DNA from: a virus
Taxonomy: Duplodnaviria; Heunggongvirae; Uroviricota; Caudoviricetes
DNA length: 22,248 nt
Virus record (IMG/VR): IMGVR_UViG_2778261418_000019
Span: 1 to 22,248 of that record
Reading direction: 5' to 3' (one strand)
Below are positions 1-15,853 of the stretch, piece after piece (position 1 is the stretch's first letter; each line of letters opens with the position of its first letter). The position numbers were made by a program, and so were the translations under genes. The notes beneath the pieces are model-generated. The model was not told the origin of the DNA and made no database searches. It saw only the letters and a list, made by a program, of their open reading frames with translations.

Positions 1-300
1 GTGCAATATATTAAACTAAGTGAATATAAATTATTTCATCGTTATGATTATGAAGGCGATGTATGTATTAATGTGTTTTCGAATATGGTGATTTATTTTG
101 ATGGCTATGACCGTGTTGTACTTGATCGTAGTACAAATACCTTCACGTATCAAAATATTGAAACTGCAACCCAACAAGAAATAGAAGATTACACTACCAT
201 CAAAGAAGAATTGATCTTCCAGTACAGCACACTGATTGACGTCGAGAAATACATCTCAATTCAAGAAGAAATGAAGAAACTAAACGATATGTACGAATAA
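1..300 (+). CDS. hypothetical protein (99 aa; GTG at the window edge, possibly 5'-truncated)
   Basis: The frame is open from base 1 to TAA at 298-300, and a stem-loop follows a few nt downstream. No motif recognised. Confidence 0.5.
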   Translation: MQYIKLSEYKLFHRYDYEGDVCINVFSNMVIYFDGYDRVVLDRSTNTFTYQNIETATQQEIEDYTTIKEELIFQYSTLIDVEKYISIQEEMKKLNDMYE

Positions 301-302
301 AA

Positions 303-323
303 AAGCCCACTTAATGTGGGCTT
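303..323. terminator. bidirectional rho-independent terminator between convergent genes
   Basis: AAGCCCAC (303-310), loop TTAAT, GTGGGCTT (316-323). On the minus strand the stem is followed by TTTTTATT. On the plus strand it is followed by the weaker run CATTGTTTCATT. Confidence 0.6.
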
Positions 324-333
324 CATTGTTTCA

Positions 334-516
334 TTATACGGCTTTTTCTACATGGTACGCGGCGAAGTGAAAGGAAGTAAATGTACCCGACGCTGCGTTA
401 TTCTTATGTACGGTACGGTATTTGTTATCCTCACCTTTTACTACTGCCCCCATATATACATCGTTAACCATGATATCAGTGATGTTACCGCGTTCTAAGT
501 AAGTTACTGTATTCAT
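334..516 (-). CDS. hypothetical small protein (60 aa), the only convincing minus-strand gene
   Basis: ATG at 516 is preceded by AAGGGA with a 7-nt spacer. The track start at 549 is a TTG with no RBS. The gene has its own promoter-like element (557-584) and ends at the 303-323 hairpin. No motif recognised. Confidence 0.5.
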   Translation of the reverse strand: MNTVTYLERGNITDIMVNDVYMGAVVKGEDNKYRTVHKNNAASGTFTSFHFAAYHVEKAV

Positions 517-556
517 TATATATCCCTTCGTAGTAGTGTTTTGCTTCAATAAAGAC

Positions 557-584
557 AGTATACACTACCGTTAGTTACTATCAA
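557..584 (-). promoter_or_regulatory. sigma70-like promoter for the minus-strand gene
   Basis: Read on the minus strand: TTGATA (584-579), 16-nt spacer, TATACT (562-557). This lies about 40 nt upstream of the ATG at 516. Confidence 0.45.
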
Positions 585-617
585 GTGTTTTCTACTAATA
601 AAATATTTTAGTAACTA
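572..617. promoter_or_regulatory. 9-bp inverted repeat pair, candidate operator half-sites between divergent promoters
   Basis: TAGTTACTA (572-580) and TAGTAACTA (609-617) are exact reverse complements 28 nt apart. The left arm overlaps the minus -35. The right arm ends 3 nt before the plus -35. Confidence 0.35.
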
Positions 618-620
618 GTG

Positions 621-649
621 TTGACGTTAGATACTAATGATCCTAGTAT
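621..649 (+). promoter_or_regulatory. sigma70-like promoter for the rightward small-gene cluster
   Basis: TTGACG (621-626), 17-nt spacer, TAGTAT (644-649). The spacer and -10 contain the inverted repeat GATACTA (630-636) / TAGTATC (644-650). Confidence 0.4.
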
Positions 650-678
650 CAGTGGTGTCAATACAACGAGGACACAAC

Positions 679-765
679 ATGACGTTCACTATCACTAAAG
701 AGCATGTACTATTTGTAGTCATCATAACCTTGTTACTAATCGTAGGGAGTATCGAAAATGTCTAA
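679..765 (+). CDS. 28-aa hydrophobic mini-protein (MTFTITKEHVLFVVIITLLLIVGSIENV)
   Basis: Not in the ORF track because it is under 60 aa. ATG at 679 has GAGGA 5 nt upstream. One predicted TM helix. The 3' end overlaps the next ATG at 758. Confidence 0.35.
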   Translation: MTFTITKEHVLFVVIITLLLIVGSIENV

Positions 766-928
766 GGGTGTATCTACTGATTTGATCATTAAGGCACATG
801 ATTTAGGATTCAAGATTAACGAGATTGATAATCGTGTAACGGGAATGTTTCATATAGTAATTAGTTCCCGTCATAATGAGCGTGAATTATTCAGTATGTT
901 TCTTATGTCTGGTGGCTTGTTCCATTAG
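758..928 (+). CDS. hypothetical 56-aa protein ending at an in-frame TAG; the frame stays open a further 40 codons to TAA 1049-1051
   Basis: ATG at 758 follows GGGAG with an 8-nt spacer. The stop is TAG at 926-928. The same frame has no stop and no start codon until 1051, 4 nt before a 16-bp hairpin. Confidence 0.4.
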   Translation: MSKGVSTDLIIKAHDLGFKINEIDNRVTGMFHIVISSRHNERELFSMFLMSGGLFH

Positions 929-1055
929 GAAAAGAACATCAATTTACCTAAGAGTGTAACCGATAAGATCACTATTGCCCGATTCGATGGTGAACGTGCT
1001 TTCACTTCATTACTAGAAGTAGTATCCGAAGAAATTACTAACGTACATTAATCAA

Positions 1056-1094
1056 TTAACACTACTAGTACATTTTCGGTACTAGTAGTGTTAA
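1056..1094. repeat. perfect 16-bp inverted repeat with a 7-nt loop (hairpin; terminator or operator candidate)
   Basis: TTAACACTACTAGTAC (1056-1071), ATTTTCG, GTACTAGTAGTGTTAA (1079-1094). No U-tract follows. Confidence 0.45.
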
Positions 1095-1106
1095 TATGGA
1101 CACTCT

Positions 1107-1208
1107 ATGAAAAAATTAACCTTTACTTACCTTGCGGCTGCAAATTTCTTTTTCTTCATTGCTGGGATCTTTACATGCGTATTAGTTGTATTGCTGGTGG
1201 ACTTATAA
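1107..1208 (+). CDS. 33-aa hydrophobic mini-protein (MKKLTFTYLAAANFFFFIAGIFTCVLVVLLVDL)
   Basis: Read directly from the sequence. KK followed by a long hydrophobic stretch looks like a single-pass membrane peptide. Only a weak GGA lies upstream. It overlaps the alternative frame of the 1088-1372 ORF. Confidence 0.3.
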   Translation: MKKLTFTYLAAANFFFFIAGIFTCVLVVLLVDL

Positions 1209-1372
1209 CCGAAGTTTTCGACGATCACGACCGAAAGGTAGGGGCGGTCACTATGTCTAAGCATCCCCTACACATCAATAAGCCTTTTAGTGATGGTAAG
1301 ACGTGGCACACTACCTATAACGAAGCACTATTGAACTTACTAACTAGAAAACGCGTGAACATTAAGCTATGA
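1175..1372 (+). CDS. hypothetical protein (65 aa from ATG 1175; alternative start ATG 1253 gives 39 aa)
   Basis: The track ORF 1088-1372 begins with a GTG inside the hairpin arm, which is unlikely. Its 3' end is coupled to the next gene by an ATGA overlap at 1369-1372. Confidence 0.4.
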   Translation: MRISCIAGGLITEVFDDHDRKVGAVTMSKHPLHINKPFSDGKTWHTTYNEALLNLLTRKRVNIKL

Positions 1373-1590
1373 ATGATCTTAATGATCTAAACGTGCTCTA
1401 TATAGATACAGTACGAAAACTTACCGAAGAAGATCTACTACGTGATTTTGGTCTTACAAGTGAGATGATAAACACTTTGAAGGAGATCCCACTTGCAAAT
1501 ATAGGTAAACTAACCGAATGTACTCAGTTACTGTTAAAATCAAACGAGGCTGTACTATGGGAAGCATTAAAAGCATTACCGCAAAGATGA
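1369..1590 (+). CDS. 73-aa helical protein, possibly FlhD-like (weak, from memory)
   Basis: ATGA overlap with the upstream gene. RDFGLTSEMINTLKEIPLANIGKLTECTQLLLKSN lines up without gaps with E. coli FlhD [35 protein letters not shown], as I recall that sequence. Confidence 0.6.
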   Translation: MNDLNDLNVLYIDTVRKLTEEDLLRDFGLTSEMINTLKEIPLANIGKLTECTQLLLKSNEAVLWEALKALPQR

Positions 1591-2240
1591 TCAGTACGAT
1601 TCTTAATGATGATTTTCATGTAGGTATGTTGACTGCCGACGCAACAGGCCGCAATGCACTGGCAAACGTCAACGAAGAAGATATAGATACACTTATTCAA
1701 CGCCTGGAAGAAGTGAAAGACTATGTTAGTACACTTCGTACCGAGCGTATAAACGAAGCTAAGAAACTATTAGAATCACTTGTACAAGAGTCTGGTAGCT
1801 TCTCTAGTGTAGAGGAACTGCTTTCTACACTTGCCGTATCTTCTCCTGCTTCCATACCACAAAAAGCATCGAAGCCAAACGGCAATAAAATATTCGAAGT
1901 AGTCATAGTTGATAGCAAGAAGGACGAAAGAAGATCCTATAATGTAATCAATAAGAAGTTACCAGCGGCATTACTCAAGGATGAAGTATACATTCAGTTG
2001 GTTAAGAAGAATCCCGAACTATCAGACGTTGACGAGTTTTTACGGGCGTATAGTGAGGACTATCGCAAAAAATACCCGCTTAATGCGAAGTGGAACGGTC
2101 ATGAGTTCCATCTAAACCAGAAAGGGAAGATGAACGCGAAAGCACAGGAATACTACGCCGAGTACAAGAAGCAGTACCCCAAACAGGCCGACGAGCAAGA
2201 CTTCAAAGAGCTTGTTACTAAAGCCTATAAGGTAGCATAA
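1557..2240 (+). CDS. hypothetical protein (227 aa) with an H-NS-like N-terminal coiled-coil pattern and a K/Y-rich C-terminus
   Basis: ATG at 1557 follows GAGG with a 7-nt spacer (alternatives 1518 and 1587). EEDIDTLIQRLEEVKDYV...AKKLLESLVQESGSFSSVEELLSTL resembles an H-NS-type oligomerisation region. No TWTGRGRxP-type DNA-binding motif and no cysteines. Confidence 0.65.
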   Translation: MGSIKSITAKMISTILNDDFHVGMLTADATGRNALANVNEEDIDTLIQRLEEVKDYVSTLRTERINEAKKLLESLVQESGSFSSVEELLSTLAVSSPASIPQKASKPNGNKIFEVVIVDSKKDERRSYNVINKKLPAALLKDEVYIQLVKKNPELSDVDEFLRAYSEDYRKKYPLNAKWNGHEFHLNQKGKMNAKAQEYYAEYKKQYPKQADEQDFKELVTKAYKVA

Positions 2241-2247
2241 GAAGAAT

Positions 2248-2280
2248 AATAGCTACTACACAGATAAAGTAGTAGCTATT
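2248..2280 (+). terminator. perfect 12-bp stem-loop after the 1557-2240 gene (no U-tract)
   Basis: AATAGCTACTAC (2248-2259), loop ACAGATAAA, GTAGTAGCTATT (2269-2280). Confidence 0.4.
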
Positions 2281-2301
2281 ACTAAATATCATAGCTATAA
2301 T
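2273..2301 (+). promoter_or_regulatory. possible promoter for the lipoprotein cassette
   Basis: Consensus -10 TATAAT (2296-2301) sits 17 nt after a poor -35 TAGCTA (2273-2278) that lies in the hairpin arm. Confidence 0.3.
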
Positions 2302-2348
2302 AATTCACATCAAGCATCACTCCACACAATCACTAAAAGGAATTACTA

Positions 2349-2729
2349 ATGAAGCATCTCTTTGCCCTAGCTGTACTTGCTACTGCTACAATCACTACTG
2401 GCTGCACTACTACAATGCCTGCATTTATGAATGAAGCTGTAGTAGGTGATATTAACGGTCGTACACTAGTATTATTCCCCGTAAATGGTGGCAAAGAGTA
2501 TCGCCCACAATTCAGTAGTGATTGTCAGCCAATGCTATTAGGTGAAGAACGCCCATCTACTGGTAACTGTATTATTGCCGCCGCCCGCCTTACAAACATT
2601 CATAGCTACACCGAACATAAAGCCCACGGCCCCCACAAAAACACCACTAAGATAGTTGATCGTTCAAATAATTACGGTACAGAATTTGAGTTATCGAAAC
2701 CAACTAATTATATAGGCGATAATCTGTGA
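2349..2729 (+). CDS. putative lipoprotein (126 aa)
   Basis: AAGGA RBS. The N-terminus MKHLFALAVLATATITTGC is a signal peptide ending in a lipobox-like TTGC. Confidence 0.7.
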   Translation: MKHLFALAVLATATITTGCTTTMPAFMNEAVVGDINGRTLVLFPVNGGKEYRPQFSSDCQPMLLGEERPSTGNCIIAAARLTNIHSYTEHKAHGPHKNTTKIVDRSNNYGTEFELSKPTNYIGDNL

Positions 2730-2815
2730 TGAAGAAAACAATATTTGCCGTACTTTTAGTTATGGGGACTGCATATTACTATGATATAATAAAATATATT
2801 AATCCCACTTATTAA
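2729..2815 (+). CDS. 28-aa hydrophobic mini-protein (MKKTIFAVLLVMGTAYYYDIIKYINPTY)
   Basis: Its ATG overlaps the lipoprotein stop (TGATG at 2727-2731), suggesting translational coupling. The N-terminus is signal- or TM-like. Confidence 0.35.
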   Translation: MKKTIFAVLLVMGTAYYYDIIKYINPTY

Positions 2816-2908
2816 ATTGCAGTCGCCGTAATCAAAAACACTGTCATTATCTGGCATCAATAATGCCATTGATTCTGATAAAGTAGATAATCCCGAATGG
2901 ATGAATTT

Positions 2909-3289
2909 ATGAAAAAGATTGTACTGTCTGCATTACTGTTAGTAGCCCCTTCGGTACTGGCAGTAAATGTAATACTCCCTGATGATGGTCTGTATCGTTG
3001 CGGTGTTGAATCGTGGGAACAGGTAGGAAAGCGAGTAGTAAAGACTGGTTATTATGGTATGACTGGTTATGTGAGTATTGATAACCGTGCTGTTAGTGTG
3101 AAGTTTAGGGATGTGAATATTTCATTCAGCCCTGTTTCAAAACTTAAAAGCGGTCGCCTGATGGCCTATGCCGTAGATACTGACCAGTACGATATTATTA
3201 TTAGTGCAATCAATGGTAAAACACAGTATATGGTCAGCAATGAGAATAATCCCGTATTTTTGAACTTCTCCAATTGTATTATTGAATAA
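2909..3289 (+). CDS. secreted protein, paralog A (126 aa from ATG 2909; the track start 2897 is also possible)
   Basis: MKKIVLSALLLVAPSVLA|VN is a type I signal peptide. Cysteines sit near both ends of the mature protein (LYRC ... FSNC). Paralogous to 3299-3685. Confidence 0.7.
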   Translation: MKKIVLSALLLVAPSVLAVNVILPDDGLYRCGVESWEQVGKRVVKTGYYGMTGYVSIDNRAVSVKFRDVNISFSPVSKLKSGRLMAYAVDTDQYDIIISAINGKTQYMVSNENNPVFLNFSNCIIE

Positions 3290-3298
3290 GGAATAGAA

Positions 3299-3685
3299 AT
3301 GAAAAAGGTTATCGTATCTGCATTACTGTTAGTAGCTCCTTCGGTACTGGCTAACACTCACTCTCTACCAGAGCAGGGATTGTATCAATGTGATGTGAAA
3401 GTAGTTGAAATGCTGGGTGATACTCCAGTAGAAAAATCTTCTTATTCTGGTGCAGGTCACGCTAAAGTTAATAGTGATGGTTTTATCCTTAACTTCGGTG
3501 CAATGACTCACGCCACCGGACCAATAGAATCTAATGATTCAATGACAATGGCTTATGATAATGATAGGCAGCGATACTTCCTTGCAACAATGGGTAGTAA
3601 AGAGCAAAACGATATTACTTTTATCTTCTCATTGAGATCTGATACTCGTAATTACTACTTTCAAAACTGCGTTAAAATAAAATAA
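3299..3685 (+). CDS. secreted protein, paralog B (128 aa)
   Basis: AAGGAA RBS. MKKVIVSALLLVAPSVLA|NT is a signal peptide. Cysteines at LYQC ... FQNC. MAY and NC positions are shared with paralog A. Confidence 0.75.
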   Translation: MKKVIVSALLLVAPSVLANTHSLPEQGLYQCDVKVVEMLGDTPVEKSSYSGAGHAKVNSDGFILNFGAMTHATGPIESNDSMTMAYDNDRQRYFLATMGSKEQNDITFIFSLRSDTRNYYFQNCVKIK

Positions 3686-3696
3686 GGGATATATAT

Positions 3697-3906
3697 ATGT
3701 CAGAGAAACTAATTAAAGCAATCCGTAATATTACGGAATATAATATGAGTATTGAGCGTATCATTGTTAGTACCGAAGACCAGCAACACTATTATAGTAT
3801 TAATCCTTATAAGGAAACTGTAATAAAGGTAGCAGACCAATACGGCAAACCAATTGAAGGAGAAGTAGAAATACCACAAATACCGCCATTATTCGATACT
3901 AACTAA
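3697..3906 (+). CDS. hypothetical protein (69 aa)
   Basis: AAGGGA RBS 7 nt upstream. A strong terminator follows directly. Confidence 0.6.
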   Translation: MSEKLIKAIRNITEYNMSIERIIVSTEDQQHYYSINPYKETVIKVADQYGKPIEGEVEIPQIPPLFDTN

Positions 3907-3912
3907 TAATAT

Positions 3913-3940
3913 AGCCCACTAATAAAAGTGGGCTTTTTTA
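3913..3940 (+). terminator. rho-independent terminator
   Basis: AGCCCAC (3913-3919), 8-nt loop, GTGGGCT (3928-3934), then TTTTTT. The stem sequence matches the hairpin at 303-323. Confidence 0.8.
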
Positions 3941-3951
3941 TTCCTGCCTAA

Positions 3952-3978
3952 ATACTCCTATACATGCAATAGGAGTAT
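3952..3978 (+). promoter_or_regulatory. hairpin that sequesters the RBS of the 3985 gene
   Basis: ATACTCCTAT (3952-3961) pairs with ATAGGAGTAT (3969-3978) across the loop ACATGCA. The right arm contains the AGGAG Shine-Dalgarno at 3971-3975. Confidence 0.35.
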
Positions 3979-3984
3979 CCCACC

Positions 3985-4371
3985 ATGAATACAATCTACC
4001 TACACTTCCCTGATGGAACGTATAAGGCCATAGAAAGCACCACAGGCCGACAGGAATCAGGATACATACCATCACGCAAGGATAAGCTAATAACCGCTCA
4101 TATCATCACACAGGACGGTTACGAGCTATTCATAGATACCTATACACTAACGCTTAAGTATAAATACATTACATTAAACTACTCACGCTTCACCATAGGC
4201 CGTACTAATTACCCTATCAATGCACTAGATACATTCAGCGGTAGTGAGCTACCACACTTAACCCGACTAAGGGAACTACGCGACGAGATCTTACAGTACC
4301 GTACCGTAGATGGTCTGCCTATCTCTTATCGTTGTGATGTAATCGTTAGTAATATGGTGATACTCAAGTAG
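3985..4371 (+). CDS. hypothetical protein (128 aa)
   Basis: AGGAG RBS. Ends in TAG, followed two codons later by an in-frame TAA. No motif recognised. Confidence 0.65.
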   Translation: MNTIYLHFPDGTYKAIESTTGRQESGYIPSRKDKLITAHIITQDGYELFIDTYTLTLKYKYITLNYSRFTIGRTNYPINALDTFSGSELPHLTRLRELRDEILQYRTVDGLPISYRCDVIVSNMVILK

Positions 4372-4684
4372 ATTGCATAAGAAGTGCATAACGGCATGGG
4401 TGGCATGATTCTGCACTGATAGGTGATACCTATCAACATTATGTACAATTTGTGCGATCTTATCGAAAAAAGATGAAATTAATTAAAATAAAGGTTGACA
4501 AATAAAAATATAATAGGTTCTCCCAAAAAACGGCAAATAGAGCGAGTTTTCGCCGCGAATTGCAAATAAAATTCGTGGAAAATTTTACAAAGAACAAACA
4601 AAACTATAGATAAAATCTATCAGTACAGAAATAGATAGGAAATATCAATCAATGGAAAAGAATAAAAAGTGAATAGGAAATCAC
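4372..4684 (+). other. 313-nt non-coding region upstream of terS; probable cos and terminase-binding region
   Basis: No ORF. Very AT-rich with one small GC island. Repeated GATAG-type motifs: the inverted pair TGATAGGT/ACCTATCA (4417-4435), ATAGATA (4606-4612), GATAGAT inverted (4615-4621) and ATAGATA (4631-4637). Direct TGCATAA repeats at 4374 and 4385. The position matches lambda cos, immediately upstream of Nu1. Confidence 0.4.
4549..4559. other. GC-rich palindrome TTCGC-C-GCGAA, candidate cosN nicking centre
   Basis: It is the only GC-rich, two-fold symmetric element in the AT-rich leader of a Nu1/GpA-type terminase operon. Confidence 0.2.
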
Positions 4685-5254
4685 ATGGCAAAAGTAAAAG
4701 ATGATGGAACAAGATATTCCTGGCAAGAAATTGCCGACCGATTCGGTGTGGAACATTCCACAGTATCCCGTATCTGGTCTGGTAAAGGACTGGATATTAC
4801 ATGGCCTAAGAAATTAGTAGACGACTGGTTACTTGCAAACGTAATCGAACCCCTACGCAATGGTGATACTAAAGGTCAAATACAAAAAGCAAACCTACGC
4901 AAACTAGAAGCAGAAGCAGACCTAAAAGAATTAGAACTACGTCAACAATCTGGTGAACTAATTCCGGTAGCAGTAGTACAGCAAACATTATCACAATATT
5001 TCTATCAACTAAGACAGGTACTAAGAAGTATTCCAGCGTCGAGTTATGTAGAACTATTTGAATCACAGGACGCCTTAGAATTAAAAATTAAATTACAGGA
5101 CAAGATAGACCGCCAGCTAGAAGAAATCGGCGGGTATGAATATGAGGGAACATATGAAGACCAACTACCAGAAGATGATGAAGATCCTAACGAGGGCGGC
5201 GAAGTCGATCCTACCTCCGAAGAAACAACTACCCGCAGAGTGGGTAGAGAGTAA
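4685..5254 (+). CDS. terS: terminase small subunit (Nu1-like, 189 aa)
   Basis: The N-terminal HTH-like segment is YSWQEIADRFGVEHSTVSRIW. A coiled-coil middle resembles lambda Nu1, and the tail is acidic. It lies immediately upstream of terL. Confidence 0.8.
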   Translation: MAKVKDDGTRYSWQEIADRFGVEHSTVSRIWSGKGLDITWPKKLVDDWLLANVIEPLRNGDTKGQIQKANLRKLEAEADLKELELRQQSGELIPVAVVQQTLSQYFYQLRQVLRSIPASSYVELFESQDALELKIKLQDKIDRQLEEIGGYEYEGTYEDQLPEDDEDPNEGGEVDPTSEETTTRRVGRE

Positions 5255-7049
5255 CCTAGTCTTCCCCGATGGCGAACTACAAGGGCAACGCGTCAAATTA
5301 TTTGCCTTTCAACATAAGCCCATCAACGATATAGTTAATCCACGTGTACGTAAAGTGGTACTAATGAGTAGTGCTCAACTTCTCAAAACAACGGTACTAC
5401 AGAATAGTATGTACTACTTCCTAGCCAATGATCCGAGTAACATGATCTTCGGTGGTGCTACTGGCGGTACTACAAGTAAATTCCGTACTGGTAAATGGCA
5501 GGCAGTCATAGAAGCATGTCCGGTGCTGAAAAATCTAGTTAGTAATAAGAATGATAAGAACTATACGAACAATGACAAGACACAACAAAATTTAGATGGT
5601 ACGTTTACCTACTTCCTGTCATTGGGTAGTAGTGCTTCCCTTCGTGGCCTTAGTTCGCCTCGCGTATTCCTAGACGAGATATCAAACGTAGACGCAGACG
5701 GGGATGAAGGCAACCCATTGAAGCTAGCCGAGCAGAGGACGAAAGCATTCTCTAACCCCCTTATTATGTGTTGTTCTACACCACTAGATGAACACGACCT
5801 GATTACTCAACAGTACGAGCAAAGTAATAAACAGAAGTTTTATGTACCGTGTCCACACTGTAACCACTCTCACGAAATGGTATTCGAGAATGTTAAATTT
5901 GAATGGAAGATCATAGAAGGTGGTCGCCGTCGTATCCCCGATGCAGATACTGCAAGATTAGAATGCCCAAAATGTAATAATGTAATCACCGAAGCAGAAC
6001 GTGTACGAATGATTCGTAGGGGTGAATGGGTAGTAACAGCACCAGAAGTAACCGATATAATGGGATATCACATATCTAGACTCTATTCCCCCATCAACTC
6101 CATAAAATCAATAGTAGCAGACTTTGCCGAAGCACATTATACCTTTGACCTTGCATCATTCTATAACAACGTCTTAGGACTACCATATATTGATAAAGAG
6201 AATACCGACCATGATTTGGTACTGTTAGAGAACCTACGCGATAGTGAAATAGATATTAATACCGTGCCAGATGATTGTCAGGGAATCGTATTTGGCGTAG
6301 ACCAACAGTTAGACCGTTTGGAAGTTACTACACTAGGAGTAAGTGAAAAGAATCTATATGTACTAGATCATAGAAGCATTTACGCAATTGACTGTACTAA
6401 GATCGAAGCACCAGCATGGAATAAGCTAACGGCCTTTGCAAATACACCATTTAAAACTAAATCGGGTAAACCATTGAAGGTACTGGCAGGATTCGTAGAT
6501 AGTTCGAACGGCAACGCAACTAGTACCGTATATCGCTATTGCAGTAGTTCTACTATCTTTAAACCAATCAAAGGTGGTACGTCTAACTCTAACCCACTAT
6601 TCAAAGATAGTACCGCTGGTGGTCACTCCCTGATTAACCTTAACGTAAACTTAGGCAAATCAAACGTCCGTCAATTACTCAACCGTGCTGTATCCGATAG
6701 TGAAAATAGTAAGGAAGTACAAATACATTTCAGTCATTCAGTACCGGATGATTACTTTATTCAGCTTACTTCCGAGAAGCGAGTAATAAAGGCTGGTGCC
6801 TGGGTATGGGTGAAGAAAGTTAGTTCGGCGAGAAATGAAACCCTTGATTGTCTTAATTACTCGCTTATATGTTTCCAGTGGTATCTATCCAAGTTAGGTA
6901 GTCAACCATTCCGACAACTAAGGGAATACAACGCTAAACAAAAAGAGAAAGCAGGACTAAATAAAGAAGTAAATACAGAAGAAGCACCAACTAAGCCAAC
7001 TCCAAAACGAGTAATAAGGCCGCGTAAAGGTGGTGGATTCTTTAAATAA
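5136..7049 (+). CDS. terL: terminase large subunit, GpA family (637 aa; alternative starts at 5142, 5154 and 5175)
   Basis: Blocks match lambda gpA: LPAEWVESNLVFP vs AVEWADANYYLP, GVDQQLDRLEV vs GIDSQLDRYEM, and RNETLDCLNYSL vs RNEALDCFVYAL. It also has CPHC...CPKC zinc-ribbon cysteines. Confidence 0.93.
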   Translation: MNMREHMKTNYQKMMKILTRAAKSILPPKKQLPAEWVESNLVFPDGELQGQRVKLFAFQHKPINDIVNPRVRKVVLMSSAQLLKTTVLQNSMYYFLANDPSNMIFGGATGGTTSKFRTGKWQAVIEACPVLKNLVSNKNDKNYTNNDKTQQNLDGTFTYFLSLGSSASLRGLSSPRVFLDEISNVDADGDEGNPLKLAEQRTKAFSNPLIMCCSTPLDEHDLITQQYEQSNKQKFYVPCPHCNHSHEMVFENVKFEWKIIEGGRRRIPDADTARLECPKCNNVITEAERVRMIRRGEWVVTAPEVTDIMGYHISRLYSPINSIKSIVADFAEAHYTFDLASFYNNVLGLPYIDKENTDHDLVLLENLRDSEIDINTVPDDCQGIVFGVDQQLDRLEVTTLGVSEKNLYVLDHRSIYAIDCTKIEAPAWNKLTAFANTPFKTKSGKPLKVLAGFVDSSNGNATSTVYRYCSSSTIFKPIKGGTSNSNPLFKDSTAGGHSLINLNVNLGKSNVRQLLNRAVSDSENSKEVQIHFSHSVPDDYFIQLTSEKRVIKAGAWVWVKKVSSARNETLDCLNYSLICFQWYLSKLGSQPFRQLREYNAKQKEKAGLNKEVNTEEAPTKPTPKRVIRPRKGGGFFK

Positions 7050-11599: not shown

Positions 11600-15334
<3,735 letters not shown>

Positions 15335-15394: not shown

Positions 15395-15853
15395 ATGGCT
15401 ATGTCTATTATGACTGGTGCTAACCTAAAAGTAGAGTTAGGCACTTATACCGCTGGTAGCTCTACCGCTGCCGCAGATTTTCAAGAAATCCCAGAAGTGG
15501 CAGCATTCGCTACTAGTGGTTTTGAATCTACTGTTATTGATGTTGTTACTTACAACTCTGCTTATAATCGCAAGCTACTAGGAACAAAATCCGTGCCTGA
15601 TTGTGAACTAACTGTTAACTATCTAGCAGATAACGCAGTACACCAAAAGTTAGAACAACTTGCAGATGATCAGGTACGTACTCAGGTTAAAATCACCTAC
15701 TACGAAAACGCAACCCGTACAACTGGCTTCTTCGTAATCTACAATGCTTTCGTATCTTCAAACTTGATCGCAGGTAGTAAAGACGAAGTAGTGACTAAGG
15801 CATTTACACTAGCTGTAGATGGTGGTCCAATCCAATCCGGTATTAATGCTTAA
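15395..15853 (+). CDS. major tail (tube) protein (152 aa)
   Basis: Strong AAGGAA RBS. It lies directly upstream of the G/GT chaperones and tape measure, has a typical size, and is followed by triple stops and a strong terminator. Confidence 0.8.
   Translation: MAMSIMTGANLKVELGTYTAGSSTAAADFQEIPEVAAFATSGFESTVIDVVTYNSAYNRKLLGTKSVPDCELTVNYLADNAVHQKLEQLADDQVRTQVKITYYENATRTTGFFVIYNAFVSSNLIAGSKDEVVTKAFTLAVDGGPIQSGINA

Follow-up and report, generated by a model that had tools for sequence, protein, structure and literature searches.

Introduction

To our knowledge, every FlhD-type protein described so far is one half of an FlhDC-like activator, either that of the flagella or, on integrative and conjugative elements (ICEs) and plasmids, SetCD or AcaCD. 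It has been reported that the FlhDC-type heteromeric activators AcaCD and SetCD control mobile elements (PMC4207636), and that in BisDC the FlhC-like BisC (DUF2857) works with the ParB-like BisD (PMC7423338). FlhD is also a target of inhibitors: the degenerate EAL proteins STM1697 and YdiV bind FlhD at its helices 1 and 4 and thereby inhibit FlhD4C2 (PMC5622320). Here, we describe two overlapping genes, the open reading frames (ORFs) ORF73 and ORF227, in a 22,248-nucleotide (nt) stretch of DNA, the IMG/VR record IMGVR_UViG_2778261418_000019 (the window; positions are those of the window unless a locus, L001 and so on, is named), which is part of a prophage of E. coli. ORF73 is likely a remote homologue of the FlhD core, and ORF73 and ORF227 together probably make up a two-part regulator of a new kind.

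ORF73 Resembles the Core of FlhD

ORF73 is a genuine gene, since intact homologous frames of 70–82 amino acids (aa) are kept at a synonymous divergence (dS) above 1, with ratios of nonsynonymous to synonymous divergence (dN/dS) of 0.3–0.7. Seven close homologues share 85–97% identity with it, and HMMER, run exhaustively over 1.84 billion representatives, returned only 11 matches, of which all the small ones belong to the ORF73 family; more distant homologues, of 70–82 aa and 35–59% identity, were added in this way.

An earlier note on this DNA, made from the sequence alone, had aligned ORF73 to the core of FlhD without gaps and with about 11 identities. We found exactly this: residues 27–57 align gap-free to residues 36–66 of E. 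coli FlhD with 11 identities (G, EM, TL, L, KL, E, QL). FlhD was the sole family matched by ORF73 in Pfam and NCBIfam, in both cases below threshold (PF05247: E-value 0.027, 15.2 bits, cut-off 27; NF002783: E-value 0.013, 15.6 bits, cut-off 90), and the Pfam match was found in 6 of the 14 members of the ORF73 family, with a best E-value of 0.0037. The similarity to bona fide FlhD is reciprocal at profile level: a hidden Markov model (HMM) of the ORF73 family recovered K-12 FlhD (E-value 0.0048), and an HMM built from enteric FlhD only had the ORF73 ORFs as its best non-self matches (E-values 4e-4 to 3e-3) among the 4,566 six-frame ORFs of 40 loci. Moreover, hhalign of the ORF73 family against FlhD gave a probability of 78.6% (P 1.7e-5) with 33% identity over 33 columns, the aligned segment being FGLTSEMINTLKEIPLANIGKLTECTQLLLKS. 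When the family profile was searched against the PDB, three different FlhD entries were the only single-stretch matches besides repeat proteins, with marginal E-values of 0.09–0.6. The stronger matches to designed armadillo and leucine-rich repeat proteins were discarded as summed repeat artefacts, made of many 8-bit stretches with an i-Evalue of ~18 each; likewise, a DUF2857 match of one ORF73 homologue (E-value 0.023) was not significant.

The fold points in the same direction. In a Foldseek search of the PDB with the AF2 model of ORF73 (predicted local distance difference test, pLDDT, 70.6), the best eight matches were all FlhD chains (probability 0.80–0.99, template modelling score 0.55–0.66, E-value 0.06–0.6), and after these the probability dropped to 0.10 or less. 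The model thus appears to have the helical core of FlhD, on fold evidence that we regard as only moderate because of the pLDDT and of the Foldseek E-values. As FlhD is the sole family match, recurs in the family, is reciprocal and is supported by the fold search, the resemblance goes beyond chance.

ORF73 Recurs Directly Upstream of ORF227

ORF73-like genes are directly followed by an ORF227-like gene at every locus that could be examined, and ORF73 was never found without ORF227. In the window, the two genes share 34 nt (1557..1590), as the earlier note had reported; the overlap is 34 nt at most loci and 22, 25, 28 or 40 nt elsewhere, lengths that are all 1 modulo 3, so that the relative frame is identical throughout. 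Two lineages lack the overlap, the genes being separated by a short gap or by an inserted gene. The pairing persists down to 35% identity of ORF73 and 40% identity of ORF227. On the upstream side the stop codon of ORF65 overlaps the start codon of ORF73 (ATGA), and ORF65, for which neither a known family nor a PDB or Pfam relative was found, accompanies ORF73 at nearly all loci.

The constant frame relation between the two genes led us to consider a programmed −1 frameshift producing an ORF73–ORF227 fusion. It was rejected: no canonical slippery heptamer is present in 1557–1590, and ORF227 has its own Shine–Dalgarno sequence and ATG and exists alone elsewhere.

The tree of ORF227 places ORF73 at the base of the three main clades, with several subsequent losses. 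Because ORF227 can stand alone and ORF73 has been lost repeatedly, ORF227 is the core of the arrangement and ORF65/ORF73 an optional cassette just upstream of it.

ORF227 Is a Conserved Two-Domain Orphan

ORF227 has at least 26 homologues, which come from prophages of Escherichia, Enterobacter, Klebsiella, Cronobacter and Leclercia and from 17 IMG/VR contigs; no relative was found in the GTDB species-representative genomes scanned. Its dN/dS of ~0.1 indicates strong purifying selection. The AF2 model is confident (pLDDT 81) and consists of two domains joined by a disordered linker: an acidic helical N-domain (residues 1–95, isoelectric point (pI) 4.5) with a 40-residue helix at 40–79, the linker itself (residues 93–108, pLDDT below 50), and a basic, Lys/Tyr-rich alpha/beta domain (residues 110–227, pI 9.2), whose charge is complementary to that of the N-domain. 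The C-domain carries the conserved motif FLRAYS..Y...YP.NAKW, in which the core LRAYS..Y...Y.xNAK is invariant. A dynein LC8-like light chain was matched by the C-domain at an E-value of 0.11, with a suggestive beta-alpha-alpha-beta pattern; the match was not significant, had no support from the fold search, and was rejected.

The earlier note had described the partner of ORF73 as a Cys-free protein with an unfamiliar Lys/Tyr-rich C-terminus and had found no Cys-rich, FlhC-like protein following ORF73, and the data agree. The C-terminal 117 residues contain 24 Lys and Arg and 10 Tyr, and ORF227 was assigned to no known family. Comparison of the ORF227 family with FlhC by hhalign gave a probability of 0.1%, FlhC (PF05280) had no match in ORF227 and its 26 homologues (27 members), and no FlhC was among the fold matches listed; as ORF227 has no Cys, a zinc site of the FlhC type is impossible. 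The H-NS-like N-terminus claimed in the same note did not hold. Histone_HNS (PF00816) had no match in the 27 members, hhalign against E. coli H-NS gave a probability of 0.25%, the PDB profile search with ORF227 returned no H-NS, and no structural match to the oligomerisation or the DNA-binding domain of H-NS was found. What ORF227 has of H-NS is the architecture: helices at the N-terminus, reaching residue 94, are followed by a flexible linker and then by a basic C-domain. Many oligomeric DNA-binding proteins share this layout with H-NS, and the likeness is one of analogy and not of membership. ORF227 therefore belongs neither to the H-NS nor to the FlhC family. The pairing proposed at the outset, of an FlhD-like protein with a nucleoid-protein mimic, survives in its first half, that is, in the recurrent ORF73–ORF227 pairing and the remote, sub-threshold FlhD core (15.2 versus 27 bits), and fails in its H-NS half.

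Possible Roles of ORF73 and ORF227

The explanation that we prefer, tentatively, is that ORF227 is the core DNA-binding regulator of the phage and ORF73 an optional FlhD-type co-subunit. The preference comes from two facts, namely that the characterised FlhD-type proteins are all subunits of heteromeric activators and that in BisDC one partner has been swapped. The prophage genes also include no recognisable classical repressor, antiterminator or other regulator, nor a replication gene, and we counted the lack of another regulator or repressor in favour of this explanation. ORF227 would self-associate through its acidic helical N-domain, and its basic C-domain, on the flexible linker, would contact DNA, thus controlling phage transcription, most likely that of the moron and late operons further downstream. 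ORF73, a putative minimal FlhD-fold subunit made of the helical core only, would be co-transcribed and probably translationally coupled with ORF227, and would bind it as FlhD binds FlhC, tuning its activity as an optional co-factor rather than as an essential half.

Several observations weigh against this proposal. ORF227 occurs without ORF73 at L001-3, L011-12, L021, L022, L033, L034 and L041-43, and ORF73 is decayed beside an intact ORF227 at L019 (premature stop), L023/24 (N-terminus lost) and L030 (frameshift), so that ORF227 is independent of ORF73. The dN/dS values of ORF73 reflect weak constraint. All the sequence scores that link ORF73 to FlhD are under curated thresholds, the model is of moderate confidence, and the match covers positions 8–66 of the 102 of the FlhD profile, with the C-terminal third missing; at 73 aa, ORF73 is shorter than a full-length FlhD of ~105–120 aa including the C-terminal region. 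The C-domain of ORF227 matched no known DNA-binding fold. In addition, repeat scans found no operator-like motif common to the candidate target promoters; they yielded just one perfect palindrome (1055–1095) and a motif in the context of ribosome-binding sites (RBS). If the regulator/co-subunit proposal is true, the FlhD fold would be a portable co-factor module that co-evolved with an unrelated, family-less two-domain protein, and ORF227 a new phage regulator in a lineage with no recognisable repressor, antiterminator or late activator.

The main alternative, which we consider doubtful, is that ORF73, perhaps together with ORF65, acts on the host, by pairing with host FlhD, by titrating FlhC or as a decoy for anti-activators of the YdiV/STM1697 type. 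Flagellar expression would then be changed in lysogens, as lysogenic conversion or for the exclusion of flagellotropic phages, and the overlap with ORF227 would be gene packing. In fact, ORF73 keeps the FlhD helix-1 features LN.LY....R.L and the helix-4 features KLT[ED].NQL, with an acidic residue aligned to Glu62 of FlhD, and these are exactly the helices bound by STM1697/YdiV (PMC5622320). Sister prophages carry, between ORF227 and terminase, a moron gene for a degenerate EAL protein of 224–227 aa, closest to Salmonella STM1697 (E-value 3.7e-44 to 5hxg_A and 7e-19 to YdiV). Among the 11 STM1697 residues that contact FlhD, six are identical in the prophage protein and two conservatively replaced, including F160 and L173, which are central, and the lysines K167 and K175, which form the salt bridges of the STM1697 contact. 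The prophages with the EAL gene form one clade on the ORF227 tree that has lost ORF65 and in which a single member (L015) has an intact ORF73, two have fragments of it and the others none, a pattern that fits functional replacement; ORF65 and ORF73 are also missing from the prophages of Klebsiella isolates. However, as this pattern comes from a single clade, it is effectively one evolutionary event, and L015 carries both ORF73 and the EAL gene. Moreover, a K. variicola prophage has the EAL gene, and the K. pneumoniae complex is non-motile. The identity of ORF73 to host FlhD is just 20–33%, which makes heterodimerisation of the two uncertain, and the conserved overlap with ORF227 across ~10 lineages is left unexplained. 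A more specific form, in which ORF73 with ORF65 is an FlhD mimic entering the host flagellar circuit through binding of FlhD, FlhC or proteins of the YdiV/STM1697 type, and the cassette and the EAL protein are interchangeable devices with the same target, is in our view unlikely. No description of a viral decoy of FlhD was found in the literature searched. If ORF73 did target host FlhD4C2, this would be a new route by which a prophage reprogrammes motility, relevant to colonisation of the gut, to detection by the immune system and to resistance against flagellotropic phages. Under either reading, ORF227 is a conserved, well-folded orphan family whose structure would be worth determining.

It is less likely still that the FlhD resemblance is due to chance or convergence and that ORF73 is a small four-helix phage protein, such as an adaptor or an anti-repressor. 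The E-values are marginal throughout (Pfam 0.0037–0.027, PDB 0.09–0.6, Foldseek 0.06–0.6), the alignable core is ~33–56 residues long, other clades of ORF73 score 5–9 bits against the enteric FlhD HMM, and ORF73 has neither the FlhD C-terminus nor an FlhC partner. On the other hand, five partly independent methods indicate FlhD alone, repeat-protein artefacts aside, and the match spans the most conserved motif of FlhD, KLAETNQL.

We also find it improbable that ORF227 is a protein of DNA metabolism, for example the replication initiator of the phage, with ORF73 as an accessory factor. The prophage of E. coli has no recognisable replication gene, all members of the lineage have ORF227, which is under strong constraint, and the position of ORF227 behind the early genes recalls that of lambda O; against this, there are no iterons or tandem repeats within or near the ORF227 gene, no initiator family was matched by ORF227, and all known FlhD-type proteins are components of transcription activator complexes. 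Finally, that ORF227 is an H-NS-type nucleoid protein or mimic, silencing or counter-silencing the AT-rich prophage, is very improbable, since the profile comparisons given above are negative and its C-domain, of ~118 residues, has another secondary structure and no visible QGR/GRTP DNA-binding loop, in spite of a parallel layout (short N-terminal helices, a long helix, a short helix, a disordered linker and a basic C-domain), a pattern-level likeness of IDTLIQRLEEV...VEELLSTLA to LETLEEMLEKL...PNELLNSLAA of H-NS, and a prophage of ~30–45% GC, AT-rich foreign DNA in E. coli being a typical substrate of H-NS.

The Prophage and the Surroundings of the Cassette

The window, which is 99.9% identical to NZ_CM151386.1, belongs to an AT-rich siphovirus prophage of ~33 kb that has yegD of E. 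coli as its insertion site. The prophage, bounded by a large serine recombinase, is rare (2 of 5,426 complete E. coli genomes) and carries a lambda-type terminase, a portal, a fused protease-capsid and siphovirus tail genes. The GC content of positions 1–6000 is 30–45%, and that of E. coli is ~51%. Neither ORF73 nor ORF227 had a match when GenBank phages and PLSDB plasmids were searched at DNA and protein level. No deposited phage or plasmid is close, distant capsid relatives being the only ones, and the lineage is therefore uncharacterised and foreign. It can be described as one of rare temperate siphoviruses of Enterobacteriaceae with a conserved ORF65-ORF73-ORF227 cassette, located at the junction of the early region with the moron and structural genes.

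The features of this region are listed in Table 1. PGAP/RefSeq annotated no gene in 517–1556 (L004 11518–12557), a stretch that contains two conserved genes, ORF65 and ORF73, and the interrupted 97-aa gene. The operon runs from the 97-aa gene through ORF65 and ORF73 to ORF227 and is divergent from the 60-aa gene, whose highly conserved product, with no PDB or Pfam relatives, is a candidate component of a switch. In the region between them, promoter-like sites were found on the minus strand (TTGATA-16-TATACT, 584..557) and on the plus strand (TTGACG-17-TAGTAT, 621..649), in numbers not above those of shuffled sequences. The 17-bp inverted repeat is kept exactly in L005–L008 and may act as an operator or form an RNA hairpin. 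The stem-loop behind ORF227 appears from its sequence to close the cassette, with the moron genes next. For ORF65, ORF73, ORF227 and their neighbours, PHROGs and PADLOC gave nothing meaningful; a match to phrog_18820 (unknown function; E-value 0.011) was weak.

Table 1. Positions of the cassette, its flanking elements and the EAL-like genes of sister prophages.
Feature	Position	Strand	Remarks
60-aa gene, conserved, His/Tyr-rich	334..516	-	sole minus-strand gene of this arm
Divergent promoter-like region	557..649	both	consensus scan
Homologue of conserved 97-aa gene	758..1051	+	in-frame TAG at 926-928; intact in L005
Perfect 17-bp inverted repeat, 7-nt spacer (ATTAACACTACTAGTAC n7 GTACTAGTAGTGTTAAT)	1055..1095		between 97-aa gene and ORF65
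ORF65	1175..1372	+	65 aa, basic, pI 9.65
ORF73	1369..1590	+	73 aa, acidic, pI 4.6; FlhD-core-like predicted fold
GAGG, putative Shine–Dalgarno of ORF227	1546..1549	+	within ORF73, 7 nt before ATG; read from sequence
ORF227	1557..2240	+	227 aa, 0 Cys; ATG at 1557
Putative 9-bp stem-loop (AGCTACTAC ... GTAGTAGCT)	2251..2277	+	directly after ORF227 stop; read from sequence
EAL-like genes	L015:6472-7146; L001:10504-11187; L022-L024; L041:9163-9837		sister prophages

Besides the interrupted 97-aa gene, a methyltransferase upstream (L004 9419–10151) is split, and this copy of the prophage may be decaying. Downstream of the cassette, three moron-like genes for exported proteins occupy 2349–3685: the first (2349–2729) encodes a lipoprotein-like product with a signal ending in TTGC, and the other two (2897–3289 and 3299–3685) are paralogues whose signal-peptide DNA is 89% identical. 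Bidirectional terminator-like hairpins at 303–323 and 3913–3934 use near-identical sequence (AAGCCCACT...AGTGGGCTT). The RBS-context motif, of ~20 nt (ATAAAAGGAATT..AA.ATG), is present at 2333, 11581, 15376 and 18860, in front of four genes, which encode a moron, a 1244-aa fibre-like protein, a tail tube protein and a distal tail protein. In the 1244-aa protein (11600–15334), an N-terminus resembling a tail tube (phrog_158) is fused to tail-fibre repeats, among them a 33-nt tandem array at window positions 14274–14459; a separate gene for a 152-aa tail tube protein (15395–15853) follows directly, which is an unusual arrangement.

Comparison with Known Systems

The closest relative by fold is FlhD of FlhD4C2 (PF05247; PDB 1G8E, 2AVU, 4ES4, 5HXG, 8J56), with which ORF73 shares, according to the fold search, the same helical core, and the motifs N-x-x-Y in helix 1 and K-L-x-E/D-x-N-Q-L in helix 4. 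Both are small acidic subunits whose gene lies immediately upstream of that of a larger partner with a basic region. FlhD has 116 aa, whereas ORF73, with 73 aa, is without the FlhD C-terminal region and scores below the family thresholds; unlike FlhD, it has no equivalent of Cys65, is of prophage origin and has a partner that is not FlhC, no FlhC with a four-Cys zinc site being found beside it.

SetCD of the SXT/R391 ICEs and AcaCD of the IncC plasmids are similar in that a weakly FlhD-like subunit is encoded on a mobile element with a co-expressed adjacent partner, and ORF73/ORF227 is likewise a candidate activator of the late functions of its own element. In those systems, however, SetC and AcaC can be recognised as homologues of FlhC, and neither subunit is dispensable (PMC4207636), whereas ORF227 has no similarity to FlhC and several lineages do without the FlhD-like gene, so that ORF73/ORF227 does not share the need for both subunits. 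A precedent is BisDC of ICEclc, an FlhDC-type pair with one half swapped for an unrelated protein: BisDC keeps the FlhC-like half and has FlhD replaced, whereas ORF73/ORF227 keeps the FlhD-like half and has FlhC replaced.

H-NS/StpA (PF00816) are like ORF227 in domain layout and in the location on AT-rich foreign DNA only; sequence, profile and fold are not similar, and the C-domain of ORF227 is more than twice as long. YdiV/STM1697 have close homologues in the moron region of sister prophages and bind the FlhD helices that are kept in ORF73; a gene of this type is absent from the window, and binding of its product to ORF73 would be hypothetical. New here are the minimal FlhD core, found with no FlhC and with a conserved orphan partner, and the undescribed temperate phage lineage in which they occur.

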